A program made the position numbers and the translations under genes. This document shows positions 1 to 53,004 of a stretch of DNA of 64,000 bases, piece after piece. Below the pieces are notes generated by a model. The model saw nothing but the letters and a program-made list of their open reading frames with translations, ran no database searches and was not told where the DNA came from. The stretch comes from Candidatus Uhrbacteria bacterium. GTDB lineage: Bacteria > Patescibacteriota > Patescibacteriia > UBA9934 > GWF2-40-263. The stretch's first letter is position 1. Every line of letters starts with the position of its first letter. Location of the stretch: contig JAERTI010000043.1 in the NCBI GenBank assembly GCA_016844925.1, positions 2,386 to 66,385 of the forward strand, in the 5' to 3' direction.

Positions 1-719
1 TGCAGTCGCACGCAGTTGCGTACGGCCTGACGGAGCAGCAGGGGCTCGGGGTGAACGATGCCGCAGATGACCCGCGTCAGCTCACCGACGTCGTCGCCAC
101 TGAGCTTGGGAACAGCGAGCTTGATCGTCTGGATGTGGGGAGCCGCTTCCGACCCGCCGAAGGGCGCGCCGGTCAGGTCCACGATCTCACGCAGGCTCGC
201 CACGACGAACGCCACCTGACCTTCGATGGTTCGCATCTCCGGCGGGACGTCGTCCACGGGAGCCTTGGGCTTGCGCGAGACGATGCCGTTGCGCGGCTTC
301 TTCGCTTTGCGCTCGGCAGCGAGTTGACGTGTCCTCTCGTTGGCACGTTCACGAGAGGTCTGGACATCCTGTCCACGGTCTCCGTGATAGATTCCGCGCA
401 CGGCGGAGTCTTCGTCCGTCGGCGGCGAAGCGTCGAGCACGGGAATGAGCTCGACGTCGTCGTCCTCCCCCGTCTCGGTGCGGTCGTTCACGGTCACGGC
501 CATCATCTCCTGGGAGGTGATAGCGAATGGGTCGTCGACAGCTTCGACCTCCTGGCTCATGGCCGCATCCGACGGCAGAGCGTCGGGTACGTCCGTCACC
601 GGAGAATCCGGCGCCGGGACCACGTTGAGCTCCTGGTCGGGTGGAGCCTTCGGATCGTTCGTTCTCAGTCGGATCGCACCAGGGCGGACCTGGAACGGGA
701 CTTGCGGTTCATCTCCCAT
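1..719 (-). CDS. hypothetical protein, 5' partial in window (runs off the window start); GC-rich island 1
   Basis: My own translation of the minus strand gives an uninterrupted frame from the ATG at about 719 to position 1, with GGAGGA 4 nt upstream. The protein has an acidic N-terminal region followed by a structured C-terminal part. The plus-strand track ORF 51..809 is low-complexity (HGHGHH, RRRRS) and is probably its shadow. Confidence 0.35.
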   Translation of the reverse strand, partial: MGDEPQVPFQVRPGAIRLRTNDPKAPPDQELNVVPAPDSPVTDVPDALPSDAAMSQEVEAVDDPFAITSQEMMAVTVNDRTETGEDDDVELIPVLDASPPTDEDSAVRGIYHGDRGQDVQTSRERANERTRQLAAERKAKKPRNGIVSRKPKAPVDDVPPEMRTIEGQVAFVVASLREIVDLTGAPFGGSEAAPHIQTIKLAVPKLSGDDVGELTRVICGIVHPEPLLLRQAVRNCVRL

Positions 720-1017
720 GGGTCCTCCAATGGCGGCAAGGGTTTCGGACACGTCAGGTTCCTTTCTCTTGCAAAGAGCGTCCCGCCTCTTCATAACGAA
801 AAGGCGTGAGGCCGAGAGCAATACAAAGCACTGCTATCGACCCCACGCCATCTTCCTGTAGAAGGAGGGGAATTGCCGGCTAGCTTATGAGAACCTACAC
901 AGGAGACCGGCTTTTTTCTTATTGTAAGGGAGTTACACTGTCAAAAAAAGGCTTAGTTGTCAAGGGAAGGCGCCTGCGTTAGGCTTTGGATGGTTTTCAC
1001 CACGGAGGATCTAAGAA

Positions 1018-1716
1018 GTGTCTCAGTTCAACTCGATTCAGATGGCTCTGGCCGATCTGCTCATGGCCCTGGGGGCTGTGCAGGTCAAGGTGGAGGGATT
1101 CACGCTCAAGAAGCATGAAACTCACCCGGACGCGCCTCGTTCGCCCTACTTCCTGAACCTGCGCGACAGGAGCAACCCTGGCAAGAAGGGGACCCTCACG
1201 CCCGGTGCCTACGAGCTCATCGCCCTGTGCTGGGGCCAGGTGGTCGACGACAATGTTCTGTTCGCCGTCGGTGCTTGCGGACTCCCGCACGCGGCCACGC
1301 CCATGATGAAGGTGCTCGCCCGTCAGCGCCCGCAGCAGCTGGTGCTGCTGGACAAGCGCGAGGAGGACGGCAAGCGGTGGATCGCCGGTGTCACGGATCG
1401 CGGCGACCTGCAGCTGGATGCCAAGGTGCTGATCTTCGACGACGTCATCACTGGCGCGGACAGCAAGCTCGAGGCCATCAAGGTTCTGCGCGAGGCGCAG
1501 ATGCGCGTGGAGAACGTCGTGGTGGTCGTGGACCGTCAGCAGGGCGGGGCCGAGGCGCTCGCCGAGCACGGCATCGGCACCCACAGCGTGTTCACCGTGA
1601 CCGAGCTCATGGAGTACTACGCCGCCACCGGCCAGGTGGACCCGAGCGTCCCTCAGCTGGTGCGCGACTACATCAAGGCCGACGCCGAGTTCGAGGCTGG
1701 ACTCCTGTCAGCGTGA
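1018..1716 (+). CDS. type I phosphoribosyltransferase-domain protein (orotate/purine PRTase-like)
   Basis: The PRPP-binding motif VLIFDDVITGADS is present. GTG start with GGAGGA 8 nt upstream. About 62% GC, unlike the core. Confidence 0.55.
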   Translation: MSQFNSIQMALADLLMALGAVQVKVEGFTLKKHETHPDAPRSPYFLNLRDRSNPGKKGTLTPGAYELIALCWGQVVDDNVLFAVGACGLPHAATPMMKVLARQRPQQLVLLDKREEDGKRWIAGVTDRGDLQLDAKVLIFDDVITGADSKLEAIKVLREAQMRVENVVVVVDRQQGGAEALAEHGIGTHSVFTVTELMEYYAATGQVDPSVPQLVRDYIKADAEFEAGLLSA

Positions 1717-1744
1717 TCTACGTGCTGTGACTTCTGTGCTTGCA

Positions 1745-1800
1745 GGTGCAAGAGCGCAGCCGCCCGCGTGAGAAATACGATATTTCTCCGCGGGTTTTTT
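1745..1800 (+). terminator. rho-independent terminator (CCCGCG...CGCGGG plus TTTTTT)
   Basis: GC hairpin cccgcgtgagaaatacgatatttctccgcggg followed by a T6 run, directly after the PRTase stop. Confidence 0.6.
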
Positions 1801-1873
1801 GATTGACGTTTTTGGTTGTGTTCATTACGCTGGCCCTCCGGCGAGCTGACTCGTCGATGCCGTGGAGGTTCAG

Positions 1874-2854
1874 ATGGCAGAGTGGGAAATTCCCGAAGAT
1901 CCTGAAGCAGCAACATTCTCACTGATCATCGAGGTGATGACGGGTGAGGAGGAGGACTACAGCTACAGCGCACGCACGATCCCTCTGATCGGTCTGGAGA
2001 TCGAGTCTGCGACCTGTGATCAGGTGCTCCGCACCGGTGGTGAGGGCCGAGAGCCCCGCATCGGCACCTACGTGGTGACCGCGGATCAGCACGGGGTGCA
2101 CTTCGTCGCTGGCCCCGAGGGAATCACGGAAGAAGAGCGGCGGGACCTGTGCCAGGTTCTGGGCGCCGAGCTCATGCGCTACCGGCGCCAGTTGGTGGGT
2201 ATCGCACAGCGCTTGCAGCCCGAGGCGGTCAAGGGGATTGCCGAGGAGGTGATCCGAGCCGTGGTGGAGCAGGCACGTCGAGACGATCCGCTTCACGAGT
2301 CCCTGCGGATTCCCGATTCTGAGCACATCCAGCTCGAGGCCGTGTGCAAGGCGCACGGTTTCCTGGTGCAGAAGGTGCATTCGGTGGCGCCTGGCATGGT
2401 GGCCATCGGCAAGATGGAGAGCCCGCACACGCGGCGCTACGCGGACGTTCGCATCATGGCAACGCCACGCGAGCCCATCGGGCCGGTGGTGGTGAAGATC
2501 GGGATGCTCAGCCACGCGAGCCCTCTGTTCCAGGTGGTGCACACCCACCTGCTGGAACGGGTGCTGGAAGCTGTCGACCGTGACTACGGTGGCGTGCTCA
2601 CGCAGATCGCCGTGGAGACGGAGGTGGAGATCCAGAGGGCATCGCGCCTGATGGAGACCCTCCAAGACACGGCCGGCTTCAGCGAGGATCAGATTCGCAA
2701 CGGTGCTGCAGATGTTCGCGATGCGGAACAGGAACGTGAACAGGAGCGGCGCGCGGACGAGGCGGTGAAGCTGGGCCAAGCCCTCGCGGGGCTGGGTCAG
2801 ACCAGTTTCGTTCGAGCCAACACGGCTCATCCTCCGGAGGTCCCGGAGGCCTAG
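1874..2854 (+). CDS. hypothetical protein (GC-rich island 1)
   Basis: Track ORF 1862..2854. GGAGG sits 6 nt before the ATG at 1874. No recognisable domain. Confidence 0.4.
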   Translation: MAEWEIPEDPEAATFSLIIEVMTGEEEDYSYSARTIPLIGLEIESATCDQVLRTGGEGREPRIGTYVVTADQHGVHFVAGPEGITEEERRDLCQVLGAELMRYRRQLVGIAQRLQPEAVKGIAEEVIRAVVEQARRDDPLHESLRIPDSEHIQLEAVCKAHGFLVQKVHSVAPGMVAIGKMESPHTRRYADVRIMATPREPIGPVVVKIGMLSHASPLFQVVHTHLLERVLEAVDRDYGGVLTQIAVETEVEIQRASRLMETLQDTAGFSEDQIRNGAADVRDAEQEREQERRADEAVKLGQALAGLGQTSFVRANTAHPPEVPEA

Positions 2855-8425: not shown

Positions 8426-9118
8426 TCAGCGAGGCTGGCGGATGGGACGGAAGCCCCTGTGGCCGTAGCTCCCGTAGGTGCGTTGCACTGGCGCGAGTCT
8501 TCGTGGAGCCGCCATGGACGGCTGGGGGAACAGGTTCCTGCGAGCTGTGCGGAGAGACTGCGCAACCTTGAGGAGCTTCTTGATCCGAGAGGCACGATCA
8601 CGAGCCGCCTGCCGGCGTCTCTTCTCGAGCTCACGCGTTACAAGCTTCATCGCTCGTTCGCCCACGATCTCCATCAGATCGAAGCGACTCAGCGGAGGGT
8701 CTCTCCGAGAGCGGCCGATCCTCAGGGTGACGCCGAACAGGTTGTCCCTGCCGAAGTTCTTGAATCGATGGATGATGGTCTTGATGCCTTGAGCCACGCG
8801 AGTGGCGATGTACTTGATCGCACGGTGCTTGGAGGCTTGGATCTCCAGGTACACGCGAATCCCGCGCTCGTTGTTCAGTAGAGCTGAGACGACGAAGTCG
8901 CGCATCTTGCGTACGCACCCCTTGCGCAGCGTGAGCTGCAGCTCGAAGGTGGGCTCGTGAGCGGCATGTGGCGGCGGGAAGATCTTCAGATCTACCCGTT
9001 CTTCGATGTTTTCCTCCTTACCTCGGGTGAGTTCATGTGGGATCCCCATCTGGTCCAGTTCCTTGCTGAGAGCTTGCTCGAGAGCAAGACCGGCCTGAAA
9101 CCGCGGTCGTCTTCCCAT
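8426..9118 (-). CDS. hypothetical basic protein (single-gene GC-rich islet between efp and recA)
   Basis: The track ORF 8426..9391 overlaps the recA 3' end. Trimmed to MGRRPRF with GGGAGA upstream. RG-rich C-terminus. About 58% GC. No convincing family match. Confidence 0.4.
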   Translation of the reverse strand: MGRRPRFQAGLALEQALSKELDQMGIPHELTRGKEENIEERVDLKIFPPPHAAHEPTFELQLTLRKGCVRKMRDFVVSALLNNERGIRVYLEIQASKHRAIKYIATRVAQGIKTIIHRFKNFGRDNLFGVTLRIGRSRRDPPLSRFDLMEIVGERAMKLVTRELEKRRRQAARDRASRIKKLLKVAQSLRTARRNLFPQPSMAAPRRLAPVQRTYGSYGHRGFRPIRQPR

Positions 9119-42680: not shown

Positions 42681-42682
42681 GA

Positions 42683-43231
42683 GTGCTGATCAACGCAATC
42701 ATGAACGGCGAAGAGACCCTGTTGGGTCTGGTGAATCAGGACACGCTGGCGTGCGCGGGTGGCGAGTGCGCCGTGGACTACGACACCGAGGGCGAGGACA
42801 TGCCCTTCATCGCCTACGTGGCCAAGCAGATCCTCGACGCCGAGTACTTCGAGGAGTACCCGATCTGTCAGTTGGTGGACATCTACCGCCGACCGATCGA
42901 GCACCTGGACACGTACCTCGAGTGGATCGAGGTGGCCATCACCGACAAGACTGCGTGCCTGATCCTGCGTGCCGCCGCCCTGATGGCCCTCAAGGCCCAG
43001 GCGGAGGATGAGATGGACCGGGAGTACACCCGCACCGAGCCCACGCCCGAGGACTACGGCATCAAGCCGATCCGCAGCGGCATGGGTCCCCGGTATCGCG
43101 GTGTCCCGGACTACATCAAGGACTACGATCCGGAGGACCGCCTCATCATCGACGAGGACGGCAACGAGTTCCGGCTGGCCATGATCAGCTGGAAGGACCT
43201 GGGTCGGTACACGCGGCAGTACGCCGCCTGA
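42683..43231 (+). CDS. hypothetical acidic protein, family C-related (GMGPRYRGVPDYIKDYDP)
   Basis: ORF track. Motif similar to the family C C-terminal motif. Confidence 0.45.
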   Translation: MLINAIMNGEETLLGLVNQDTLACAGGECAVDYDTEGEDMPFIAYVAKQILDAEYFEEYPICQLVDIYRRPIEHLDTYLEWIEVAITDKTACLILRAAALMALKAQAEDEMDREYTRTEPTPEDYGIKPIRSGMGPRYRGVPDYIKDYDPEDRLIIDEDGNEFRLAMISWKDLGRYTRQYAA

Positions 43232-43234
43232 ACA

Positions 43235-43390
43235 ACGGGGGCGCTCCCCACGCCGGGGAGCGCCCGCCCGAGCGAGTCCCACGACTTGCTCGGGACTCCA
43301 TCTTGCTTCTCGATTTGATCGAGCGGCGGGATGGAGCACAGTGGTAGAGCTCCTTGGGCTGGCATGGTGCCGGTCTGGTGTCGAGGTAAT
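43235..43390 (+). repeat. cassette-boundary element (GGGGCGCTCCCC-acgc-CGGGGAGCGCCC 3' hairpin, then CTCGGGACTCCATC...GGATGGAG)
   Basis: Direct read. Confidence 0.7.
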
Positions 43391-43394
43391 CGAC

Positions 43395-43634
43395 ATGACC
43401 AAGTCTGATTTGAAGGATGTGCTGGAAAATCTGTTTTGCCTGGTGGCTGCTGCCATCATGCTGGGTTGTTGGGCGACACTCTCGCTTGATGATGCTGTGT
43501 GGGGATTGGCCATTGGGGCAGCGACCTTTCCTTTCTTCATCGTGCTTGTGCGTTTCCTGAGCGCAGACAGCTCCAAGGCGGATCCTGGAACCGGCGCTGA
43601 AGGAGTTCCGCAGGTGGAAAAGCCTTCGGTCTGA
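43395..43634 (+). CDS. small membrane protein
   Basis: Start MTKSDLKD. 2 TM helices. Confidence 0.35.
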   Translation: MTKSDLKDVLENLFCLVAAAIMLGCWATLSLDDAVWGLAIGAATFPFFIVLVRFLSADSSKADPGTGAEGVPQVEKPSV

Positions 43635-43639
43635 AAAAA

Positions 43640-43815
43640 AGAAACGCCCGAGCCGTAGCGCTCAGGACTCATCGAGCCAAGCTCGAGACGGAAGTCCTTC
43701 GCAGCAGCTACGCACGCGCTCGGGACTCCATCGTTTGGCTCGACACGATCGAGACAAACGATGGAGCACAGTGGTAAAGCTCCTTGGACCGGGATTCCCT
43801 CGGTCTGGCTATAGG
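43640..43815 (+). repeat. cassette-boundary element
   Basis: cgctcgggactccatcgtttggctcgacacgatcgagacaaacgatggagcacagtggtaaagctcc. Confidence 0.7.
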
Positions 43816-43826
43816 TGGTCATTCAA

Positions 43827-44081
43827 ATGACCCATGACAACCCTCTGAACAATGTCCCGCAGCGGATCACTGAGATCAGCAAGATGCCTCCGGGCTTCAA
43901 GCGTGATGAAGCCATCGATTCGCTTCGCATCTTCCTCGCACAGACCGTCTCGGTCGCGAGGCTCTGCCTGGCAGAGCTCGACGCAGCACTGCTGCCTCAG
44001 AGTGATCGTCCCGAACGGATGGTCGTGCCGGCACTGTCTGAGTTCTGCAGGACCTCCGAGTGGATTCGGGATCCCAAGTGA
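43827..44081 (+). CDS. hypothetical small protein (first gene of a coupled pair)
   Basis: Stop overlaps the next start in a GTGA arrangement. Confidence 0.35.
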   Translation: MTHDNPLNNVPQRITEISKMPPGFKRDEAIDSLRIFLAQTVSVARLCLAELDAALLPQSDRPERMVVPALSEFCRTSEWIRDPK

Positions 44082-44491
44082 GCACATTCGTTTTCGTGGT
44101 CTTTGTCTCGTCTGAGCGAGTGAAGGCGACGGTTGTGCGGGTGACTGCCGCTGAACCAAAGGACGATGTGCGGCTTCGTGGTCGTGCCGTCGAGGTTCTG
44201 GTGGACGACACTTGGCATGAGATCGGGGTGGATGACGAGGAGGGAGGCATGTTGGGCACACAGCTCATCCGAGCCTTTTCCTCCAGTGGCCGAGCAGGTC
44301 ACTTCATCTTCAATCACCTTGGGCTGGACACCTACACCACACGCGATGGGACAATTTACCGTTGCGGTGGAAGGCACATGCCCAAGATCACTGATCTGAC
44401 GCTCGGTCTCCTCAAGGCGGCGGAGCGGATCAAGTGGCAAGAGCAGCAGGCTGCGCGAAAGCGGCAGCAAGAAGACGACCCGAGCGAGTAG
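44078..44491 (+). CDS. hypothetical protein (second gene of the coupled pair)
   Basis: GTG start overlapping the TGA of the upstream gene. Confidence 0.4.
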   Translation: MSTFVFVVFVSSERVKATVVRVTAAEPKDDVRLRGRAVEVLVDDTWHEIGVDDEEGGMLGTQLIRAFSSSGRAGHFIFNHLGLDTYTTRDGTIYRCGGRHMPKITDLTLGLLKAAERIKWQEQQAARKRQQEDDPSE

Positions 44492-44645
44492 CGCTCACGT
44501 CTCCACACTGGAGGCCTTAGAAGCAGCTACGCACGCGCTCGGGACTCCATCTGACGTTTCGATACGGTCGAGACATCAGATGGAGCACAGTGGTAAAGCT
44601 CCACAAACGGCCTCAGGACGCGGGTTCCGTATTCCTGTGAAGGTC
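44485..44645 (+). repeat. cassette-boundary element
   Basis: cgctcgggactccatctgacgtttcgatacggtcgagacatcagatggagcacagtggtaaagctcc. Confidence 0.7.
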
Positions 44646-44647
44646 TG

Positions 44648-44890
44648 ATGTTCGAGTATCTCATGGCAGGGCCATGGTTTGGTGAGCACAGAATCGATCC
44701 CATGTGGATCAGGCAGCAGATCGTTCGAACGCTCTTGCTTCCCAAGGGCGATCTTCGTCAGTGGAGCCTCGGAGAGATCCGCAAGGAACTGACGGCTGCG
44801 CGTGATGATTGCGACAGGCTCCTGCAAGAGCTTGAAGAAGCTATCGCGGCAGATACCGAGAAGTCTGCGGCTACAGGTGACTCGGCATGA
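44648..44890 (+). CDS. hypothetical small protein (coupled via an ATGA overlap to 44887..45102)
   Basis: ORF track. Stop/start overlap with the next gene. Confidence 0.35.
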   Translation: MFEYLMAGPWFGEHRIDPMWIRQQIVRTLLLPKGDLRQWSLGEIRKELTAARDDCDRLLQELEEAIAADTEKSAATGDSA

Positions 44891-45102
44891 GCGGTGACAA
44901 GCCCACGCTGCCCGCCCCCAAGCTCAACCTCGGGGACCTGATCAACATGTTCTACGAGGAGTACCTGGCGCTCTACCAGGATGAAGACGTTGCCTCCGTG
45001 GCTGCCGCCGCGACGATCAACAACATCCTGCGCGACGCCGACGAGAGGGATCTGCAGATCGAACGGTCTCCAGCGCCCAAAAAAGAAACGCCCGAGCCGT
45101 AA
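44887..45102 (+). CDS. small protein, family D (ASVAAAATINNIL motif)
   Basis: Paralog of 45286..45507 and 45603..45839. Confidence 0.4.
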   Translation: MSGDKPTLPAPKLNLGDLINMFYEEYLALYQDEDVASVAAAATINNILRDADERDLQIERSPAPKKETPEP

Positions 45103-45285
45103 CGCTCAGGACTCATCGAGCCAAGCTCGACACGGAAGTCCTTCGCAGCAGCTACGTACGCGCTCGGGACTCCATCCCGCGTTTCGACGAGTTCGAGATG
45201 TGAGATGGGGAAACCCAACCTGGTCTCTAGGCCTCTGACCTAGATAAAAACGGGAATCCTCCCGTTTGAACAGACTACGAGCAAC
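45085..45285 (+). repeat. cassette-boundary element plus an AAACGGGAATCCTCCCGTTT hairpin about 20 nt before the next start
   Basis: Direct read. The same pre-start hairpin occurs at 48395-48420. Confidence 0.65.
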
Positions 45286-45507
45286 ATGACTGATTCAAAA
45301 CAGTCGACCGATTCAAGTGGAACTGGTCTGGGGGTTCTTATCACTATGTTCTTTAACGAGTTCATGGAGATGTACGGAGACGAAGAGCTCGCCAGCGTTG
45401 CCACTGCCGCTGTGATCAACGACCTTCTTGTGGATGCTCGGGAGGAAGAAGAGCAGCACGCAAAGAACACGCACGGCAAAGATGTGAAGGGCACAAAGCA
45501 GAACTAG
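45286..45507 (+). CDS. small protein, family D
   Basis: LITMFFNEFMEMYGDEELASVATAAVINDLL. Confidence 0.4.
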   Translation: MTDSKQSTDSSGTGLGVLITMFFNEFMEMYGDEELASVATAAVINDLLVDAREEEEQHAKNTHGKDVKGTKQN

Positions 45508-45509
45508 CA

Positions 45510-45600
45510 TTCTGATCCTTCGCTCGACAAAGTCGCACTGTACGAGTGCGGCCTCCATCCGACATCTTGAGTAAAGTATTCGAGGTGTGAGATGGAGGAA
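45510..45600 (+). repeat. hairpin element CCTCCATCCGACATC...GTGTGAGATGGAGG
   Basis: Direct read. Confidence 0.55.
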
Positions 45601-45602
45601 GT

Positions 45603-45839
45603 GTGAAGCAAGGTAAAGGCGAGAGCCTCGAGCCTCTGATCACGCTGTGGTACGACACGTACTTTGCGTTGTTCGGAGAGGGAAGCGAGGAGTTGGCGTC
45701 GGTGGCTGCTGCGGCAACCATCAACAACATCCTTGCGGACAGAGAAAAGCAGAAAAAGGTCGAGGATGCTCTGCGGCTCGTAAGGGAACACGCCGAGCCG
45801 TCGACCAGCGACGACGAGAGGGGTTCGGGGCACAACTAG
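45603..45839 (+). CDS. small protein, family D
   Basis: LITLWYDTYFALFGEGSEELASVAAAATINNIL. Confidence 0.4.
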   Translation: MKQGKGESLEPLITLWYDTYFALFGEGSEELASVAAAATINNILADREKQKKVEDALRLVREHAEPSTSDDERGSGHN

Positions 45840-45891
45840 TGCCTCGGGCCTCGCCTAGCAACAACGCCCCAACATCAAAAGGAGGTGTCTC

Positions 45892-46092
45892 ATGGGCAAG
45901 AAGAAGGGGAAGCGCAGCCAGCCGGTTGTGCCCAAGAAGAAGGACGATGGCACGATTGTCATCAAGCGGGAGGATCTCCCGAAGGAGCGGGGGGCTCCCA
46001 TCCCCCGTGGGCAGCGGTTTCACACCCGCAACCGTGACATCCGTCGCGGATCCCGGCGTCACCCTAAGCACAAGGGCCGGCGCGAAGATTAA
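45892..46092 (+). CDS. very basic small protein
   Basis: AAAGGAGGTG RBS. K/R-rich. Confidence 0.35.
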   Translation: MGKKKGKRSQPVVPKKKDDGTIVIKREDLPKERGAPIPRGQRFHTRNRDIRRGSRRHPKHKGRRED

Positions 46093-46094
46093 CC

Positions 46095-46190
46095 CCAACC
46101 TCACGGAGGTACCGATGTATACGTACATCAACGGAGCCGTGCTGAACGAGTACGGCTTCCCATCTGAGTTTTCGAATGATCGTAGGTTCG
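46095..46190 (+). repeat. hairpin element of type A (CCCATCT...GGATGGG)
   Basis: cccatctgagttttcgaatgatcgtaggttcggatggg. Confidence 0.5.
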
Positions 46191-46233
46191 GATGGGAATC
46201 AACCCGACACCCCAAAGGAGGTATCTGGGGAAC

Positions 46234-47046
46234 ATGACAGAGCAGGAGCGGCATCGCTCAAACAACGAGACGGAGCAGCGGCTGAGGGCTGCGTCGAAGT
46301 CGATCAGGGAGGCCTGGGACGACTTTCTGGAGAGCCATCCCTCTTATACGGAAGAGACCGTACTGGAGTATGGACTTTCGTACAGCGTCTATCGGCGCGA
46401 AGTGGACCTGCGTTGCCTGGACTTGATCCAGGTGGATATGGGGCACAGTTTCTTCCTGCCAGATTGTCTTGTGGAGTTCAATCGGTGGGGCCATACCAGC
46501 CTTCTCGATGCGATCATGACCAACATCGAGTTTCGGACCTGTGTGTTCGAACGCGTGTCGTTTGCGGGCGCTGACCTGCGCGGAGCAGAGTTTCGCTCGT
46601 GTGACCTGTTCTTCGTCGATTTTCAGGAGGCGAACCTTGAGCGCGCCAACCTGGAGCGACTGAACCTGGAGATGTGTTGGTTCAAGGGAGCCAACCTGGA
46701 GATGGCGAACATTCGTCAGACCATTCTCGAGGAAGCCTACTGGTTGCCAGCACTTCTGCTGCTCTGGCGCCCGATGGATTCTCGTGAGCGGCTCTACTAC
46801 GCACGGGAGCTCATGCGCTTTCGGCGGAAGGTCCGCTGGGGAACCAATGGGGCTGATCCGTACGATGTCCGTGGCGACAAACCACAGAACGTGGACGACT
46901 TTCGTCGCTATTCAGCGGTTCACGACAACGTGTTCGAGCGAGCGTGGAGAACGCATGGGATTACCCCCGCGCAGGTGGTATCCGCACTGAAGCGTTACGC
47001 TCCAGGAACCCTGACCCGAACGGCCAGGAAGATCTTTCTCGGGTGA
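46234..47046 (+). CDS. pentapeptide-repeat-containing protein
   Basis: AAAGGAGG RBS and start MTEQERHRS. Central ADLRGAEF / ANLERANLERLNLE repeats. Confidence 0.5.
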   Translation: MTEQERHRSNNETEQRLRAASKSIREAWDDFLESHPSYTEETVLEYGLSYSVYRREVDLRCLDLIQVDMGHSFFLPDCLVEFNRWGHTSLLDAIMTNIEFRTCVFERVSFAGADLRGAEFRSCDLFFVDFQEANLERANLERLNLEMCWFKGANLEMANIRQTILEEAYWLPALLLLWRPMDSRERLYYARELMRFRRKVRWGTNGADPYDVRGDKPQNVDDFRRYSAVHDNVFERAWRTHGITPAQVVSALKRYAPGTLTRTARKIFLG

Positions 47047-47049
47047 CGA

Positions 47050-47180
47050 CCCAACAAATACGTAACGAGAGCTGTGCAGTGACTCCGTTAGGCCACACGG
47101 GCCGACGTTGAGACCGAGCACAGCTTCCTCTCTGGCTTCTCGAGTTCGCTCGAGAGGTGAGACAGGATCTTGAACCGGAG
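47050..47180 (+). repeat. type B element (ACGAGAGCTGTGC...GAGCACAGCTTCCTCTC...), which contains GTTAGGC
   Basis: Direct read. Three copies occur, at 47050, 49655 and 50640. Confidence 0.6.
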
Positions 47181-47185
47181 TTCTT

Positions 47186-47611
47186 ATGACCCCTGACCAG
47201 ACGCTGGCAGTGCTGCTAGGTCTGCTTGTCGTGGTGGTGTGCGCAGGTGCGCATACGTGGTACCGCGGCTGGCGACTGCACCAGAAATCCTTCAGGAGGG
47301 CGCACTACGCGCATGTGATCCTGGATGGATCACGGATGCTCAACCGCACACACGGGTACCTCGCGTATCCGCAAGTCTACTTGTGCCCAATCTTCAAGAT
47401 CGGGTGGGAGGATGGCTACGCGTGCGTGCAGTACATGGAGGGCAGAGCGGTCGTAGATCCAGATCGATACGACGCCGAGCTCGGCGGTGAGCTCTACTTC
47501 TTCAACGATGGAGAGTGCACCCACCACGTACTCGTCGGTCACCAGATCGACGTGAAGCTCTTCTATCGGCAGCTCGGCTGCCACAGACTCAGCGCCCGCA
47601 TCGCGCTGTGA
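47186..47611 (+). CDS. hypothetical protein with an N-terminal TM helix
   Basis: ORF track. Confidence 0.4.
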   Translation: MTPDQTLAVLLGLLVVVVCAGAHTWYRGWRLHQKSFRRAHYAHVILDGSRMLNRTHGYLAYPQVYLCPIFKIGWEDGYACVQYMEGRAVVDPDRYDAELGGELYFFNDGECTHHVLVGHQIDVKLFYRQLGCHRLSARIAL

Positions 47612-47614
47612 CAA

Positions 47615-47705
47615 CGGCTCAGCTGTGCCCCGACTCCCGATGACGACCATCGGTCGAGTCGCCGCACAGCTTCCCATCTTACGGATTGATCAATGTGATC
47701 GAGCT
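47615..47705 (+). repeat. type A hairpin element (CCCATCTTACGGATTGATC...GATCGAGCTGTGAGATGGG)
   Basis: Direct read. Four copies precede consecutive genes. Confidence 0.6.
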
Positions 47706-47745
47706 GTGAGATGGGACGTAGATCATTTTAGTTAGCCACAAGGAA

Positions 47746-48258
47746 GTGGCAGAAAGGGAACACGTGGAAACGATTCCTGTGACAGAGATCGGGGATGCTG
47801 TGATTGTGGTGTTGATGATTCTCTTCATCCTGCTTCAGGCTGGAGTCCTCGATGTCTTGGAGCCAGTCGCTCACTGCCTCGAGAGGAAGTGGCGAGGGGT
47901 TCCGATCCTGCATGTACGCTTCCTGGACGGTGTGCCAGTGTCCGCGGAAGTGACAATCGTCTGGAGCTGCGAGGATCTCAGCTACTCCCGCAACAACGTG
48001 GCAGACTTCGAGCATGTCGCTCTGGTGGTTCGGTACCACAACAAAGGCATGCTGGATGTGCAGGCCAAGTTCGGAGAAGAGGTTCTCGTGTCCCCCCTGT
48101 GGGATGTGAGCAACCCAAGGCACACGGTCGAGTACGGGCGTTTCAAGCACCTCCTGCTTGTGTGTCCAAGTCGGGAGCATGCCGAGTCATTCAGTGAGTC
48201 GTTCGGGCTCTCTGAGATTCTCGGAACAGAACAGCTTCCCGACAAGGTGAAGCCCTAA
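47746..48258 (+). CDS. hypothetical protein (strand uncertain; the antisense ORF 47728..48180 is also open)
   Basis: GTG start after AAGGAAG. GC-rich, with both frames open. Confidence 0.3.
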   Translation: MAEREHVETIPVTEIGDAVIVVLMILFILLQAGVLDVLEPVAHCLERKWRGVPILHVRFLDGVPVSAEVTIVWSCEDLSYSRNNVADFEHVALVVRYHNKGMLDVQAKFGEEVLVSPLWDVSNPRHTVEYGRFKHLLLVCPSREHAESFSESFGLSEILGTEQLPDKVKP

Positions 48259-48289
48259 CGACGAACGGCTGTGGCAGTGTTTCCCGGTA

Positions 48290-48430
48290 GCGCACCGGTT
48301 GAGATGTTGTCACGGCCGCCCATCTTACGGATTGATCAGAAGGATCGAGTCGTGAGATGGGGAAACCCAACTCGGTCTCTAGGCCAGTGTCCTAGATAAA
48401 GGCGGGAATCCTCCCGTTTGAACAGACCAA
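48290..48430 (+). repeat. type A hairpin element plus the AAAGGCGGGAATCCTCCCGTTT pre-start hairpin
   Basis: Direct read. Confidence 0.6.
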
Positions 48431-48437
48431 AGATGCC

Positions 48438-49127
48438 ATGGGAAACATGACCCATATGCTCCTGCTGCTGGACGGAAAGGATCGTCTCAATAGGTGGATG
48501 GCTGAGAATCCTGGAGAGGAACTGGATTATCAGCGCGCGACACTGAGGGGCATTGATCTGGAGTTCATGAAGCTCCGTGCCACCTTTGTCCGCGCAGATC
48601 TGACGGGCGCCCGGCTGAAAGGTACGGATCTGACAGCGGCAGACATGCGGTCCTGCAGACTCGGTGGCGCTGACCTCACAGATGCCAACCTTCGCGGTCT
48701 GAGCCTTTCAGGTGCCTACATGCCGCACGCCCGTCTCGATGGTGCGTGCTTGGTCGACGTAGATTTCCGTGGAGCGTCTTGCTACGGCGTGAGTCTCCAT
48801 GGGGCTGATCTGACGGGAACCATCCTCGATCTGAACCAGTGGGGAGCCGCCCTTCTCGATCGCTGGGATCGTGCGACGCAGCTTCAGCGCAGGTACATCA
48901 TGCCCATCCTCAGGCAGGCAGATCAGATTCGTATCTCGCCAGATGAGAATCAAAACCCGTGGACGAGAAATGGGTTGTTCCTCGCCAGGGATGACAGCTT
49001 CTCTCAGATGTGGAGCACCCGCGCTCTTAAGATACAGCTCTTCCTGGACTTCCTCTGGAAACATCGTGAGAATGATCTGCGGGCCATCGGGTTCAACGCT
49101 TGTCCTCAGGAGATCCCCTTGCACTAG
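48438..49127 (+). CDS. pentapeptide-repeat protein (subtype 1 C-terminal domain)
   Basis: LNRWMAENPGEELDY N-terminal motif and GTILDLNQWGAALLDRWD C-terminal domain. Confidence 0.6.
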   Translation: MGNMTHMLLLLDGKDRLNRWMAENPGEELDYQRATLRGIDLEFMKLRATFVRADLTGARLKGTDLTAADMRSCRLGGADLTDANLRGLSLSGAYMPHARLDGACLVDVDFRGASCYGVSLHGADLTGTILDLNQWGAALLDRWDRATQLQRRYIMPILRQADQIRISPDENQNPWTRNGLFLARDDSFSQMWSTRALKIQLFLDFLWKHRENDLRAIGFNACPQEIPLH

Positions 49128-49199
49128 TCGTTCAAAACAAGAATGACACTCTCTGATTCCGGGAAATGTACGCCCCGTTGAGTCAGACGGTCCCTCGAG

Positions 49200-49280
49200 C
49201 AGCACGTGCTCAAGGGAATCCATCCCACAACTTGATCGAACGGATCGAGTTGTGAGATGGGGTATGACCCCATAAAGGAG
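49200..49280 (+). repeat. type A hairpin element
   Basis: catcccacaacttgatcgaacggatcgagttgtgagatgggg. Confidence 0.6.
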
Positions 49281-49285
49281 AAAGG

Positions 49286-49654
49286 ATGGATCGCGTGGTT
49301 GCACGTCTGATCACGTACGGGCTGTGCGCCTTAGCCTGCACTCTTCTCGGAGTGTTTGGTGTGTTGATGGCTGTGCTGATGCTCTGGCCGTTGGTGCTGG
49401 GAGCACCGTTCATGCCCGACTGGGCAAATGTTCTTGCGCCACTGGTCGCTCCGGTGTACTGGATCGGCTTCTACAAGCTCATTCCTGTACTTCGTAGGCC
49501 CCTGCTTGAGCTTCTGGGTTCGGCAACGGCGACCTTGGGCGAGTTCCTCGAAGATCAGTGGGTTACTCGTCTGGGTAACGGAGTGAAGTGGTGCGACGAT
49601 GACTTCATGGATCCTTTTAAGGAGGATCGTTCGAAGCCGTTGTCAGACAACTAA
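49286..49654 (+). CDS. membrane protein
   Basis: AAAGGAGAAAGG RBS. 3 TM helices. Confidence 0.4.
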   Translation: MDRVVARLITYGLCALACTLLGVFGVLMAVLMLWPLVLGAPFMPDWANVLAPLVAPVYWIGFYKLIPVLRRPLLELLGSATATLGEFLEDQWVTRLGNGVKWCDDDFMDPFKEDRSKPLSDN

Positions 49655-49810
49655 ACATACGAGAGCTGTGCTTGACTGCCGTCAGGCAGGACGAGACTCC
49701 GCGAGACCACACGGGTCCGCGTTGAGACCGAGCACGGCTTCCTCTCCGGACTTTCGAGTGAATCGAGGTTCCAGAGAGGGAATCGTTCCCACAACAAACG
49801 GCGGGAGTTC
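49655..49810 (+). repeat. type B element
   Basis: acgagagctgtgcttgactgccgtcaggc...gagcacggcttcctctccgg. Confidence 0.6.
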
Positions 49811-49867
49811 CGTCCCCGGCTCCGGGTAGGAGTGTCTTGATGCTACTCAGTAGCTAAAGGACATGGT

Positions 49868-50128
49868 GTGATTATTCTCGAAGGGTTGTTTATCGCACTG
49901 GTGTTGTTCATCAGGTTCAGCTTCAAGTTCTTCAGCATTGTGGCCGACCTAGCTACGGTGATGTACATGGTTTGCTGGCCGATTATCACCACGATGCTTG
50001 CCATCGAGTTGAGCATCCAGAATCAGCTTCTGGACCCCCTGGGGTCTACCGTGAACATCTTGGCCGCACTGGCCTTCTGCATCCAAATTCTCTGGTGGTT
50101 CGTCTTGCCCAGCAGGATCGGGCCGTAG
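49868..50128 (+). CDS. small membrane protein
   Basis: 86 aa with 3 TM helices. Confidence 0.4.
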   Translation: MIILEGLFIALVLFIRFSFKFFSIVADLATVMYMVCWPIITTMLAIELSIQNQLLDPLGSTVNILAALAFCIQILWWFVLPSRIGP

Positions 50129-50164
50129 AGATAATGGATGGCTACGCTGTGACAGACTCCGAGG

Positions 50165-50230
50165 GACGACCCCTCGTTGAGACTGGACACAGCGTCCCAT
50201 CTGACAGTTTGATCAATAGGATCGAGTTGT
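50165..50230 (+). repeat. type A hairpin element
   Basis: cccatctgacagtttgatcaataggatcgagttgtgagatggg. Confidence 0.6.
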
Positions 50231-50273
50231 GAGATGGGAATTCTCCCTAAACCCGAGGAGGTATCCGGGAAAA

Positions 50274-50621
50274 GTGGAACGTTATTTTAAGAGGTGGCAG
50301 TTTCTTGCACTGGGCTCCGTCCGGGTGCTCACGGTTGCAGCCATGTTCTTGTACATCTACCTCATCTCGCATCACGCGATTTGGTGGCTGTACTTTCCGA
50401 TGATGTGCATTATTCAGGTCGACGCGCTGGCGTGCATTGTTGGTGTTCATGGCAGAAGACTCGAGGCTGCAGAGCGTTACGCAGAGAAGGGGACGGCCCA
50501 AAACCGAAATGCACTTATGAGTGCGACTTCTCCTTTGCGAATTCCGAGACTGCTTCGGGACAACGTCTTCATGCATCTGTCCGTATGGCTACTTTTCGTC
50601 CTTTCGTTGGTGCTACGATAA
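50274..50621 (+). CDS. membrane protein
   Basis: GGAGG followed 11 nt later by a GTG start. 3-4 TM helices. Confidence 0.4.
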   Translation: MERYFKRWQFLALGSVRVLTVAAMFLYIYLISHHAIWWLYFPMMCIIQVDALACIVGVHGRRLEAAERYAEKGTAQNRNALMSATSPLRIPRLLRDNVFMHLSVWLLFVLSLVLR

Positions 50622-50639
50622 AACAAGAATGAGCACCTC

Positions 50640-50810
50640 ACGATCCCAGCGGGGTTGTTGATGCACAAGAGCGCGAACTCAAGCGCACGAGAGCTGTACT
50701 GAAGACTCCCGGTGACGATCACCGGTAGAAGTTACAGGACGGCTTCCTCTCCGGACTCTCGATTAAATCGAGGTTCCAGAGAGGGATTGGTTGCTGAGAG
50801 AATTCTCACA
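50640..50810 (+). repeat. type B element (last of array 2)
   Basis: cacgagagctgtactgaag...acggcttcctctccggactctcgattaaatcgaggttccagagaggga. Confidence 0.6.
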
Positions 50811-51082
50811 TGACCGTTCTGAGACTTATTTTTGGAGGCATCATGTTGCTGTAGTGCACAGTCGATGGGGTAGCGGCGAGAAGGTTTATCCACGAGCGTA
50901 CGCGCTCAGTTCACAGGCGGGTCCGGAATAACGTCCGGTCACCCGCCGCCCTTGATCTGCTTGTGACACACGTCGCAATCAGATGGATGGGAATCATCTC
51001 TCAACTGGAGGACGAGTCATTCTTTCGTTCTCTTGTTGAGGGATGAACCCTTGCTCTGTTTACAAGCTGAAGGAGGCTGCTG

Positions 51083-52678
51083 ATGAGCACATTGCCCGAG
51101 AAGGTGCGCTGCACCGCTGGGTGCAGGCGCGAGTTTCCGCTGAACGCCCGCTACCCGGGCATCGACATTGCGATGCTCGTTGTTCCCGAAGAGGTTACGA
51201 GCGTGGAGGCGGCCCTCAAGGCTGCCAAGTGTCAGAAGTGCCTGTGTCTGACCGGTCCCATGGACAGGGGGCTGATGCAGGTCATCGACCAGCTGCAGTC
51301 GCCGACCAAGGACGTCTCCGTTTCGACGGGGGCTTCCGAGGAGACCGTGGAAGAAGACGAAGGCATCGACGCCGACGCTCTTCAGGCCCTGAGTTCCATG
51401 GGGCAGTCTGCCGGCCGCCCTGTGATGGTGGACGTCCGTGAGCTGGAGGGGACTCATCGCGGCCGCCCGGTTCAAGACGATCCGGACCGCCTGTCCCGTC
51501 GGGACGTGCGGGCCGCTCTGCGGGCACAGCCCAAGGAGCCCAAGGGTCCCTCGCTTCCCGAGGAGGCTCTGGAGGCTCTCGCCCAGGCTGGCGAAAGCGC
51601 TCGAGCGCGTGACGAAGCAGCGAAGCGTTCCAAGCTGGCGAGCTTCGGTGGCCTCATGGGGTCGCTGGGTCGCCGTCTGGAGGAGATTCGTCGTGTTGCG
51701 CAGTCCCAGAGGGTCGACAAGATGATCGACGACTTCTGGAGCAAGCTCGCTGAGGCACTCCCCAAGGATCCCAAGCAGCGCGGCAAGAAGAAGCTGCTCG
51801 CTCACCTGGGGACCAGTCACCAGGAGCTCCGTGAGCTCGACAAACTCTGCTACCACCACTGCTCCGTAGCACCCAGCGATGGGGACAACGGGCTGTGGGG
51901 GGTTCAGGGGGCACCGGGTTCGCACCTGGAACCTCGTGAAGGTGACCCGCTCTACAAGCAGATGCGTGGCAAGCCGACCATGGACATGGATCCGTTCCCC
52001 GGTGGGGAGCGTCCGGCACACTGGAGTGGGCGCGGCGAAGGACGTCGTCCCACGCTGGGACTGGTCTCGGTGGTGGGAGGATCGAGCTTTCCGGATCCGA
52101 ACCCGCCACGTGAGGTGTACGCCGGTCCCAAGATCGTCTACGCCGCGGACAAGACCTTCGTTCAGTTCAGCGATGACACGCAGGCCTACGACCAGCCGGT
52201 CCAGGGGCGTGGAACGCTGCGGCTGTGCGGCAAGGGCATGTACGCCATGATGGAGCGTACGCCGGAAGGCTGGGTGTACCACCCGTGTCTGCCCGGTGAG
52301 CAGGAGGCCGGTCCTCAGACGCTGATGTTCGTCAGGCTCGCCCTGCGGCGCGTCGACGGCCAGCTGGTCACGGCGAAGAAGCAGGAAGAGCTGCAGGCTG
52401 AGCGTGAAGCTGAGCTGAAGGCGCTGGAGGCTGAGGCTCGCGAGCGAGCCAAGTGGCTGATTGCGTGCATCGAGGTCAGTGATCAGGGGGAGCGAGCGCT
52501 TCCTCACGAGATCCAGATCGCGATCGGTCTGCACATCGGTGAGTACGACGACCTGCCTCGCGCACGTCCGGTGTACGCTCACCCTGAGATGAACGAGATC
52601 GAGGGTGGTGGTCCGGCCGAGGATGAGTCCATCGGACTCTCACCGCAGACCATCGACGGTGAGCAGCCGACGGCATGA
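51083..52678 (+). CDS. hypothetical protein (531 aa), GC-rich
   Basis: GAAGGAGG RBS. The antisense ORF 51017..52582 is treated as a shadow. Confidence 0.5.
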   Translation: MSTLPEKVRCTAGCRREFPLNARYPGIDIAMLVVPEEVTSVEAALKAAKCQKCLCLTGPMDRGLMQVIDQLQSPTKDVSVSTGASEETVEEDEGIDADALQALSSMGQSAGRPVMVDVRELEGTHRGRPVQDDPDRLSRRDVRAALRAQPKEPKGPSLPEEALEALAQAGESARARDEAAKRSKLASFGGLMGSLGRRLEEIRRVAQSQRVDKMIDDFWSKLAEALPKDPKQRGKKKLLAHLGTSHQELRELDKLCYHHCSVAPSDGDNGLWGVQGAPGSHLEPREGDPLYKQMRGKPTMDMDPFPGGERPAHWSGRGEGRRPTLGLVSVVGGSSFPDPNPPREVYAGPKIVYAADKTFVQFSDDTQAYDQPVQGRGTLRLCGKGMYAMMERTPEGWVYHPCLPGEQEAGPQTLMFVRLALRRVDGQLVTAKKQEELQAEREAELKALEAEARERAKWLIACIEVSDQGERALPHEIQIAIGLHIGEYDDLPRARPVYAHPEMNEIEGGGPAEDESIGLSPQTIDGEQPTA

Positions 52679-53004
52679 ACACATGGGGCCCTGGGTTCCC
52701 CCGCTGACATACGCGTCCGCACGAACCCACTTTTTACCTGGGTATGACAGAAGTCATGCACAGATAGAAGGATGACATCTTGAATATTCTGACAGCGCTG
52801 TTACAATTCCGTGTGCTACCGGACTGAGTCTTCTCTAGAAGGCTGCGAAGTGGGGTACGACATTAACGACCAGATCTAAATCGCGAGCATAGGTTGCTCT
52901 CCGCAAGGATGAGCGACCAAAATCTCTCTCCTCATGCTCAAACGTTCTGACCTGGTTATTTTCTCTCGTCGTGGTCTCTCTCCGCAGCCTCCTACAGAAG
53001 AAGG

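Follow-up and report, generated by a model that had tools for sequence, protein, structure and literature searches.

We analysed a 64,000-nucleotide stretch of a Candidatus Uhrbacteria genome (GenBank assembly GCA_016844925.1, contig JAERTI010000043.1, positions 2,386 to 66,385; hereafter the window), in which four GC-rich segments are set among core genes. These segments are of two kinds: two are conserved-gene segments and the two large ones are gene-cassette arrays. Our preferred interpretation, held with modest confidence, is that the arrays are organised around an integron-like, lineage-specific site on which a recombinase would act in trans. A first-pass annotation had taken all four segments for insertions, had not seen that the two large ones are defined by junction repeats, of which there are roughly 47, and had proposed either a recombinase in trans, as in clusters of attC sites without an integron-integrase (CALIN; Cury et al. 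2016, PMC4889954), or ancient and fixed islands.

Cassettes and their junctions

The two arrays, with the open reading frame (ORF) that ends the second, are:

10590..35775, minus strand: array A, between recA and the rodZ-like gene, about 32 co-oriented ORFs, median 186 amino acids (aa)
39470..52700, plus strand: array B, between ftsK and rpoB, about 21 co-oriented ORFs, median 130 aa
51083-52678, plus strand: 531-aa ORFan ending array B

Together they hold about 50 small cassettes, mostly with one ORF per junction interval and all co-oriented within an array, and this accessory DNA makes up about 60% of the window at two fixed loci. The junctions between cassettes share one layout. In gene direction, each opens with a small hairpin, h1 (GAGCgaatacgcaGCTC or GAATCgaatacgcGATTC, for instance), and continues with the core GGGACTCCATC, a larger hairpin (HP) that starts with CTCCATC and ends with GATGGAG, usually GGAA, a leader and the next ORF. 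The 11-mer core occurs in 30 exact copies against 0.08 expected by chance, 26 of them on the minus strand at 11,000-35,226 and four on the plus strand at 43,292-45,176. When one-mismatch cores, a CCCATCT...AGATGGG subtype found in the distal half of array B and degenerate copies are counted, the total is about 47 junctions (about 30 in array A, 17 in array B), spaced 0.4-2.8 kb apart. Matches to a covariance model of core plus HP, built from 32 junction copies, were confined to the two arrays and scored 50-70 bits on the gene strand versus 20-41 bits on the other, where the bare palindrome is read. The model had no match in 1-10,900 or 50,800-64,000 and misses the long-hairpin junctions at 39,960 and 40,686; the 28 kb of core DNA in the window contain no exact core and no model match. 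The junctions are listed below (model, covariance-model match):

10963..11010, minus: junction (core GGGACTCCATC plus HP), model 59.8 bits, exact core
11787..11834, minus: junction, model and exact core
12559..12607, minus: junction, model and exact core
13086..13134, minus: junction, model and exact core
13858..13906, minus: junction, model and exact core
14553..14600, minus: junction, model and exact core
14833..14893, minus: junction, variant core GGGACTCTAT, 56-nt hairpin
15840..15906, minus: junction, 62-nt hairpin, exact core
16626..16674, minus: junction, core AGGACTCCATC, model
17836..17884, minus: junction, model; 3' boundary of a cassette shared with the related strain S2
18708..18756, minus: junction, model; 5' boundary of the S2-shared cassette that ends at 17836..17884
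19408..19456, minus: junction, model and exact core
20229..20277, minus: junction, model and exact core
20670..20718, minus: junction, model and exact core
22439..22506, minus: junction, 63-nt hairpin, exact core
23094..23142, minus: junction, model and exact core
23977..24025, minus: junction, model and exact core
24458..24506, minus: junction, model and exact core
25052..25100, minus: junction, model and exact core
25860..25907, minus: junction, model and exact core, fold z = -6.9
27104..27152, minus: junction, top model match (70.4 bits)
27570..27633, minus: junction, 59-nt hairpin, exact core
28377..28424, minus: degenerate junction, model 11.4 bits, E 0.25, repeat family D13
29404..29450, minus: degenerate junction, model 16 bits, E 0.008, repeat family D13
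30449..30510, minus: junction, 57-nt hairpin, exact core
31472..31519, minus: junction, model and exact core
32946..33054, minus: junction, 104-nt hairpin
33843..33904, minus: junction, 57-nt hairpin, exact core
34600..34648, minus: junction, model and exact core
35178..35226, minus: most promoter-proximal junction of array A, model and exact core
39960..40020, plus: first junction of array B, 56-nt hairpin, TCCATAG..CTACGGA; another cassette follows the core in S2
40686..40746, plus: junction, 56-nt hairpin
41862..41911, plus: degenerate junction, core GGGACTCCAC, model 34.7 bits
42589..42606, plus: degenerate junction, core GGGACTCCAA, model
43292..43339, plus: junction, model and exact core, fold z = -6.8
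43722..43769, plus: junction, model and exact core
44541..44588, plus: junction, model and exact core
45166..45213, plus: junction, model and exact core
45549..45600, plus: junction, variant subtype, 43-nt hairpin, model
46154..46196, plus: junction, variant box CCCATC..GATGGG, model
47131..47162, plus: degenerate hairpin between two ORFs, model 21.8 bits
47668..47715, plus: junction, variant box CCCATCT..AGATGGG, model, repeat family D17
48314..48365, plus: junction, variant box, model
49214..49265, plus: junction variant, core GGGAATCCATC, model
49739..49778, plus: weak junction-like hairpin, model 10.3 bits on the minus strand (E 0.6) and 10.2 bits on the plus strand (49745-49775)
50191..50238, plus: junction, variant box, model
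50744..50783, plus: weak junction-like hairpin past the last small ORF, model 19.4 bits on the minus strand and 17.5 bits on the plus strand (50750-50780)

The larger hairpin combines a fixed outer box, CTCCATC/GATGGAG, with a variable and covarying interior. In the alignment of 32 sequences its six outer pairs are invariant, both sides have changed in 12 of 18 pairs, and 90.3% of the cells are paired; shifting the 3' partner by 1-3 columns lowers this share to 36-53%. Fifty unique junction contexts, taken from the window and from relatives, have an HP of 36-63 nt, with interiors that fall into several unrelated sequence classes; one HP of 104 nt has a long, nearly fully paired outer stem. In the alignment of 32 sequences, a non-standard pair, read as C.A, recurs just inside the outer box in 18 sequences and a second at pair 17-34 in 14, and no consistent bulged or extrahelical bases were seen. 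The small hairpin h1 varies in sequence; its pairing takes in the GGG of the core or more in most junctions and reaches GACTCC in roughly half. When the whole junction is folded as single-stranded DNA, two stem-loops abut with one unpaired A between them (...CTCGGG-A-CTCCATC...), and these double-hairpin folds have z-scores of -2.4 to -6.9 relative to shuffles. The types of h1 and the classes of HP occur in many combinations, which is the result expected if units are joined at the core. GGAGG is present in the 3' arm of HP in most array-A junctions and missing from the array-B subtypes, and the distance from HP to the start codon is highly variable, up to about 150 nt. The core also holds an odd palindrome, GGACTCC, that includes a GANTC site (for example at 35216-35226).

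At least 14 of the array ORFs encode pentapeptide-repeat proteins, a fold known as a DNA mimic, and together with ORFans they dominate the arrays. Outside the pentapeptide-repeat group, no relative of the array ORFs was found in Pfam, PHROGs or PDB (the PDB sequence search was made with the 531-aa and a 336-aa ORF), and two cassette proteins compared with a collection of 5.8 billion proteins returned only themselves and one fragment from S2. Three families of paralogous ORFans were recognised among the cassettes by shared motifs, one of them represented in both arrays, and no homologue of these families was found outside the lineage:

16784-17794, 19554-20345, 26459-27022, 33193-33765: ORFan family 1, motif LIPEAWK
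20801-22381, 24576-25055, 40785-41777: ORFan family 2, motif RGPQWAK...PGFNP
44887-45102, 45286-45507, 45603-45839: ORFan family 3, motif ELASVAAAATINN

As homologue searches returned the same lineage only, the cargo is lineage-restricted. Its make-up, of pentapeptide-repeat proteins, small membrane proteins and acidic ORFans, points to possible functions in interaction with hosts or phages. The 531-aa ORF was also considered as a hidden recombinase; this was rejected, given that it has no Pfam match and that the 605-aa ORF at the same position in the relative L120 is not homologous to it, and we treat it as cargo.

Gene calls on the opposite strand span many of the GC-rich cassettes and often start with MESR, the translated junction element, as many ORFs of the window do. 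Such calls in relatives, listed here, might be taken for cassettes in reverse orientation and were examined as a means of telling a DNA-level from an RNA-level model:

4628-5434, 6858-7583 and 8637-9392 in L134: antisense shadow ORFs
7940-8704 in L132: antisense shadow ORF

We rejected that reading, because substitutions between two homologues fall 42/23/26 by codon position in the antisense frame, a pattern indicating that the real genes lie on the array strand. Gene callers yield long antisense shadow ORFs over these arrays.

Turnover of content and array ends

Contigs from relatives were obtained through exact-protein look-ups and one pattern scan, and all are metagenome assemblies. They belong to Parcubacteria with cores 73-96% identical to that of the window genome (S1); S2 denotes several independent ENA and JGI assemblies with a 92% identical core, and L134 is GCA_041294345.1. 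Across these relatives, arrays are found at the two loci between the same core genes, and the core parts of their loci contain no junction element. The core and the outer box are retained, including in lineages of 73-76% identity, while the hairpin interiors differ.

Array content, by comparison, changes several-fold between close relatives. The rodZ-recA interval spans 25.7 kb with about 32 ORFs in the window, about 8.5 kb with 10 genes in S2, 6.2 kb in L134 and 2.9 kb in L132 (the last two with cores ~74-78% identical), and the ftsK-rpoB interval is 13 kb in the window and 4.9 kb with 2-3 junctions in L120 (~73% identical). L001, at 96% identity the closest relative, matches the window colinearly through recA as far as position 10621, beyond which its cassettes are different ones. 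Since content differs between such close strains, the idea of ancient and fixed islands is refuted for what the arrays contain, although the two loci themselves are old, being occupied in lineages 73-76% identical in the core.

The breakpoints of this turnover lie at the junctions. For cassettes shared by S1 and S2, homology starts and ends 0-4 nt from the core at the clearly resolved boundaries. One shared cassette (window 18759-17874, 90% identical to 16977-17862 of L124) has an unrelated h1 before its 5' core and an unrelated HP after its 3' core in the two strains. At the first junction of array B, cassette 39970-40685 is replaced in S2 by an unrelated one with both boundaries on cores, and two assemblies of the S2 type agree at 99.97% over 14.5 kb and then split from a core onwards, the next cassette being 90% identical and the following one unrelated. 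These boundaries define the physical unit as HP, leader, ORF and h1, with exchange inside (G)CTCGGGACTCCATC. An apparent cassette insertion or deletion between L130 and L124 was discarded as a scaffold gap of Ns.

Wider scans for the junction were less productive. The pattern GGGACTCCATC-N(25-52)-GATGGAGG proved too loose on genome contigs, with 117 single chance matches in unrelated taxa. A stricter pattern on metagenome contigs returned three loci, of which L120 and L121 are genuine and L119 looks like chance. A pattern scan of IMG/VR gave one poorly paired single match, judged chance, and blastn of a junction against phage and plasmid collections gave no match.

The array ends are as follows:

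35775..35950, minus: proximal end of array A, with TTGACA-17-TATATT (35950-35922), a leader of ~130 nt and a terminator (35802-35788)
10601..10618, minus: distal end of array A, CCCGAGCcctcGCTCGGG then ATTTTCTTTC, with an h1-like hairpin as terminator
39239..39466, plus: proximal end of array B, with TTGACA-17-TATCTT (39239-39267), a terminator-like hairpin and an inverted repeat at ~39396-39466

A strong promoter-like site thus faces into each array, and the arrays diverge from the ftsK-rodZ block. Matches to sigma-70-like promoters and intrinsic terminators inside the arrays were not above shuffled expectation, and with no such promoter detected there the cassettes are probably read from the proximal one. 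Array A starts directly after the T-run of the leader terminator. Its leader contains conserved blocks such as TCTGTGCACGCCCTAATAGGC, has five pairs with compensatory changes across the window, S2 and L132, and matches nothing in Rfam. It may be a small RNA, or else an attenuator leader that would gate read-through into the array. Entry into array B follows the same layout, with the promoter-like site, a hairpin (AGCCTGTGTTTG...CAAACACAGGCT) with T-run, a 14-bp inverted repeat and the first ORF in that order, and the two leaders have no sequence similarity.

In S2, the first core of array A lies 20 nt past the leader T-run (...TTTTTTGTGAGCCTGAGCTAGTAACTC|GGGACTCCATC) and may be the primary attachment site. 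The first cassette of array A in the window has no HP, suggesting that this proximal site has been lost in the window genome. At the distal end, the array stops in the window genome and in L001 at CCCGAGCcctcGCTCGGGA followed by TTTT, and GCTCGGGA there resembles half a core; S2 has a full junction and then a small terminator. Homology with L001 resumes at 10621 and with S2 at 10587.

Candidate mechanisms and known systems

A cassette is made up of a 5' HP (36-104 nt), a leader, one ORF and a 3' h1. Cassettes follow one another head-to-tail through the invariant core (G)CTCGGG-A-CTCCATC, at which the stem ends of h1 and HP abut around the single unpaired A. In the mechanism that we favour, a site- or structure-specific recombinase whose gene lies outside the window would make its crossover in this core. 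The favoured candidate is a tyrosine recombinase resembling integron integrases that would act on folded DNA, the substrate being either a folded single strand or a duplex. By excising, inserting and replacing whole cassettes, such an enzyme would keep the two loci flanking ftsK-rodZ hypervariable between strains. The cassettes would be read from one outward-facing promoter at the ftsK/rodZ-proximal end, behind a leader with a terminator, like the integron Pc promoter. What the sequences show directly is the repeat and its structure, the modular cassettes, their turnover at two fixed loci and the lack in cis of a recombinase gene and of detectable promoters; the enzyme, the way in which the arrays are expressed and the cause of the raised GC are inferred.

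Judged by analogy, the known systems nearest to the arrays are sedentary chromosomal integrons and CALINs. Like them, the arrays are long series of small, co-oriented, mostly single-ORF cassettes of largely unknown function without detectable promoters, with clustered sites that each separate one promoterless-looking ORF from the next. The sites are imperfect palindromes with fixed outer boxes and a centre that varies in length (36-104 nt here) and sequence with compensatory changes, so that structure is conserved over sequence; in attC the variable part is 20-100 nt (PMC4889954). Turnover between close strains, an outward promoter at one end and the lack of a nearby integrase are further points of likeness, and pentapeptide-repeat cassettes are found in Vibrio integrons as qnrVC (PMC2600354). 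The arrays differ in that their boxes are CTCCATC/GATGGAG and not RYYYAAC/GTTRRRY, that the proposed crossover core lies between two abutting hairpins, and that a cassette carries its large hairpin along at its 5' end and not at its 3' end. They also differ in that no consistent extrahelical bases were seen in the junction alignment and no IntI is known, and in residing as two divergent arrays around ftsK-rodZ in a candidate-phyla-radiation host with a very small genome. GATGGAG on the non-coding strand does resemble GTTRRRY with GAT in place of GTT. At genomic sites, 5'-GWT-3' can serve integron integrases as a target (bioRxiv 10.1101/2022.09.11.507474). On chemical grounds a GAT box is thus not implausible for such an enzyme, and an IntI-like enzyme acting at it is conceivable.

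Several observations weigh against this mechanism. No recombinase of any kind was found in the 64 kb or, in precomputed Pfam annotation, in ~20 kb around the arrays of relatives with longer loci. Neither the window nor the ~10 kb next to the relatives' arrays yielded an integron-integrase. Canonical attC boxes (RYYYAAC...GTTRRRY) occur at the chance rate with none at the junctions; the complementary R-box pattern gave two sites per strand in the 64 kb against 1.8 expected, both inside ORFs. Counts of G-T wobble pairs favour neither strand. In any modular array, breakpoints are in part bound to fall at the one sequence that all units share. Some comparison scaffolds have gaps exactly at junctions, and assemblers can mis-join repeats, although the S2 gene order was recovered in several independent assemblies. 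Cassettes shared between strains are colinear, with gain, loss and replacement only and no shuffling. Finally, junction flanks share 140-220 nt at 80-94% identity and many cassettes are paralogous, so that homologous recombination could contribute.

The last two points are shared by an alternative to which we give a real but clearly minor chance. It regards the arrays as tandemly expanded families in a long polycistronic transcript, in which each junction would be an RNA-level module: h1 a 3' stabiliser or terminator, HP a 5' stabiliser or translational control element, and the core an endonuclease site. Turnover would then come from homologous recombination, unequal crossing-over, slippage and uptake of relatives' DNA through conserved flanks, as for the 'minimal mobile elements' of Neisseria. 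The several paralogue families, the 14 or more pentapeptide-repeat cassettes, the chance-level internal promoters and terminators, the GGAGG in the HP 3' arm of most array-A junctions and the placement of the arrays between the same core genes in every relative all agree with it. However, unrelated ORFans bear the same junction, h1 and HP types assort freely, the HP-to-start distance varies widely, and the array-B subtypes have no GGAGG. The core is, moreover, far more conserved than the flanking regulatory sequence across 24-27% divergence, and resolved boundaries share only 13-18 nt, which is shorter than RecA-dependent exchange usually needs.

Two known systems bear on this alternative. Neisseria minimal mobile elements and intergenic mosaic elements have repeat-bounded modules and place different gene content between the same conserved flanking genes in different strains, with exchange plausibly helped by natural transformation. 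They work through homologous recombination in the genes on either side and through short dRS3 repeats; a double-hairpin junction with an invariant core is not part of them, nor are arrays of 20-30 cassettes. The RNase III sites of phage T7 are likewise structured hairpins between consecutive genes of a long transcript without internal promoters. Intercistronic processing sites of the T7 type are not known to mark off units that strains gain, lose or replace.

It is improbable, in our estimate, that the cassettes are non-autonomous, hairpin-ended single-strand elements mobilised by a HUH (Y1) transposase whose gene lies elsewhere, in the manner of IS200/IS605 or REP/RAYT. Here HP would be the left end, h1 the right end and the insertion point just 3' of ...CTCGGGA; arrays would grow in tandem, since every right end recreates ...CTCGGGA. 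The units do have a hairpin at both ends with the joining point directly outside the foot of both stems, and a short conserved motif beside a variable palindrome, and mobilisation in trans would be possible as in those families. The array ends fit as well, with the first S2 core following chromosomal GAGctagtaaCTCGGGA and the last S1 unit ending in GCTCGGGA|TTTT. Unlike those families, the arrays come with no Y1 gene: PF01797 is missing from window ORFs of at least 70 aa and from the precomputed Pfam annotation of the relatives' loci. Each unit carries a passenger ORF, and the units form two tandem arrays absent from the 28 kb of core DNA, whereas REP elements are dispersed in intergenic positions over the chromosome. 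IS200/IS605 elements show a lagging-strand bias, and the arrays are oppositely oriented on what GC skew suggests is one replichore.

We think it very unlikely that this is a true CALIN or sedentary integron, with divergent attC sites for hairpins and a bona fide IntI elsewhere in the genome. In its favour are clusters of imperfect palindromes that vary in length and keep their outer boxes, units with a single co-oriented ORF and no detectable promoter, the lack of an integrase within reach and the match of GATGGAG to GWTRRR on the non-coding strand. The AAC/GTT triplet, the best-conserved part of attC (PMC4889954), is missing at the junctions, no consistent extrahelical bases were seen, the strand that carries the ORFs is the reverse of what is usual for such a site, and very small genomes are reported to lack complete integrons (PMC4889954). 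The CALIN-like option of the first-pass annotation fits the two large segments well as an analogy, through single-ORF cassettes, structured repeats, no recombinase in cis and content that varies between close relatives. As the repeats are without AAC/GTT triplets, membership of the CALIN class is not established. A Xer/dif-type module was compared too. A dif-like site has 28-31 bp with two arms of ~11 bp around a 6-8-bp spacer, and sites of pdif modules alternate in orientation; on inspection, the aligned junctions have no such dyad at the core, and every site has the same, direct orientation.

That the segments are islands acquired horizontally long ago and since fixed, or remnants of prophages, which in either case have lost their integrase, is hardly credible. 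Raised GC, a somewhat distinct tetranucleotide signature and the lack of any mobility gene would agree with such an origin, but it is contradicted by array content that differs at 92-96% core identity, by the lack of PHROG matches beyond a phosphoribosyltransferase and of flanking tRNA genes or direct-repeat att sites, by variable-region GC that tracks host core GC in three lineages, and by the syntenic orthologues in the two small segments.

Returning to the recombinase reading, a wider form of it is that Parcubacteria carry an undescribed cassette recombination system, functionally equivalent to integrons, with its own double-hairpin site and possibly a new kind of recombinase, and that the two divergent hypervariable arrays are the main store of strain-specific genes. 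We put this forward tentatively, a little short of believing it. No account of integron-like or attC-like arrays in candidate-phyla-radiation bacteria turned up in full-text searches of the literature. The genomes of these bacteria are tiny and streamlined, and the origin of their strain-level diversity is poorly understood. If a dedicated recombinase does act on the double-hairpin core, an integron-like system would be gained together with a defined DNA substrate for finding the enzyme, and the system would be categorically new should that recombinase prove unrelated to integron integrases. Existing finders, whose targets are attC sites with AAC/GTT and IntI, would miss it.

GC-rich genes, composition and neighbouring sites

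The following genes lie in the small GC-rich segments:

8426..9118, minus: gene of ~230 aa with an Arg-rich C-terminus, downstream of recA, which accounts for 8411-9120
1862..2854, plus: 330-aa gene upstream of ychF, part of segment 1-2945
1018..1716, plus: phosphoribosyltransferase-like gene, with weak Pfam matches to phosphoribosyltransferases and PHROG 32468 at E 4.9e-9

The first is 53% identical in amino acids to a syntenic gene of L132, a relative with a core about 76% identical, and has a same-size counterpart in every relative examined; the second is 39% identical to L132 gene 17028-18050, with a gene of the same size at this position in every relative seen. Within 1-10900 there is no covariance-model match and no core. 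With syntenic orthologues at 8411-9120 and 1862-2854, the idea that all four segments are insertions fails there; 8411-9120 and at least 1862-2945 are conserved, fast-evolving, lineage-specific GC-rich genes that keep their place in relatives.

The GC contrast itself is real. Core segments have GC contents of 0.516 (2946-8410), 0.498 (9121-10589), 0.532 (35761-39469) and 0.506 (52701-64000), and the GC-rich segments 0.626 (1-2945), 0.603 (8411-9120), 0.574 (10590-35760) and 0.591 (39470-52700). Core DNA is thus at ~50-53% and the four segments at 57-63%, the longest lying slightly below the 58% lower limit first given for it. The excess is mainly at third codon positions, where GC is 0.721 in array A, 0.736 in array B and 0.571 in core genes; at second positions it is 0.42-0.43 in the arrays versus 0.375 in the core, and overall array GC is 0.574 for A and 0.591-0.598 for B. 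In the tetranucleotide comparison suggested earlier, arrays A and B agree at r 0.87-0.94, array and core at 0.77-0.79 and the two core halves at 0.85.

Variable-region GC follows that of the host. Core and variable regions have 0.45-0.48 and 0.52-0.62 in L132, 0.50-0.53 and 0.57-0.60 (the arrays) in the window genome, and 0.57-0.60 and 0.62-0.71 in L120, which argues against a common high-GC donor. The raised GC looks like a property of the lineage's accessory or recombining DNA and not like the mark of a foreign donor. It may reflect an intrinsic bias of weakly constrained or often recombining DNA, with biased gene conversion as one possibility. GC-rich patches in this genome are thus not, on their own, evidence of foreign origin.

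The window was scanned with Pfam (six-frame ORFs of at least 70 aa, after removal of ORFs lying mostly inside a much longer one) and with PHROGs (44 ORFs without a pentapeptide match, from the cassettes and the other GC-rich segments). No integrase, transposase or phage family was matched in the 64 kb, in agreement with the first-pass annotation, and the sole PHROG match among the 44 ORFs is the phosphoribosyltransferase (PHROG 32468). Pfam also upheld the core gene names: ychF, rpsF, ssb, rpsR, an EpmA-like class II synthetase paralogue, efp, recA, the RodZ-like helix-turn-helix protein, ftsK, rpoB, rpoC, yebC and ruvC. The RecA protein falls into a 90%-identity cluster with NQV89042.1, a RecA from the Parcubacteria group, which places the genome in the candidate phyla radiation (Patescibacteria). 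Structures do exist at the segment boundaries, as claimed, but these are ordinary gene-end terminators and an intergenic inverted repeat rather than att sites of islands. A terminator-like hairpin with a T-run was read by eye at 2905-2948, the efp terminator lies at 8381-8406, the array A side has terminators at 35963-35990 and 35788-35802 and the promoter-like site at 35922-35950, and the inverted repeat at ~39396-39466 is on the array B side. The only tRNA genes in the window are at 63032-63184, 10 kb from array B, and no direct-repeat att sites flank the arrays; the window holds no integrase, phage structural genes or tRNA-adjacent insertion with direct repeats. Rfam returned nothing but the two tRNAs for the whole window at gathering thresholds, and nothing by E-value for 10-53 kb.

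A few features near the arrays deserve mention. Both arrays flank ftsK, and FtsK activates Xer recombination. The ftsK ORF (36702-39482, minus) has Glu-rich low-complexity runs at 36702-36940 and 38433-38590; its longest form has 926 aa compared with 803-848 aa in relatives, so the true start is probably near 39248. Between array B and rpoB, 52701-53775 is ~1 kb of low GC (0.48-0.52) with no convincing gene, and a 116-aa ORF there (52971-53321) has no Pfam match and is not rplL; neither rplJ nor rplL precedes rpoB in the window. A gene with a methyltransferase domain lies at 4248-5459, its best Pfam match being the RNA-type UPF0020 family. A 77-aa ORF (10313-10546, minus) resembles, by eye, a Phd/YefM-type antitoxin or DNA-binding protein. 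Upstream of this ORF and recA, a near-perfect palindrome, TTGTCAGACAATTGTTTGACAAATGTCTGACA, at 10545-10590 is kept in S2 and L001 and looks like a putative operator of the recA operon.

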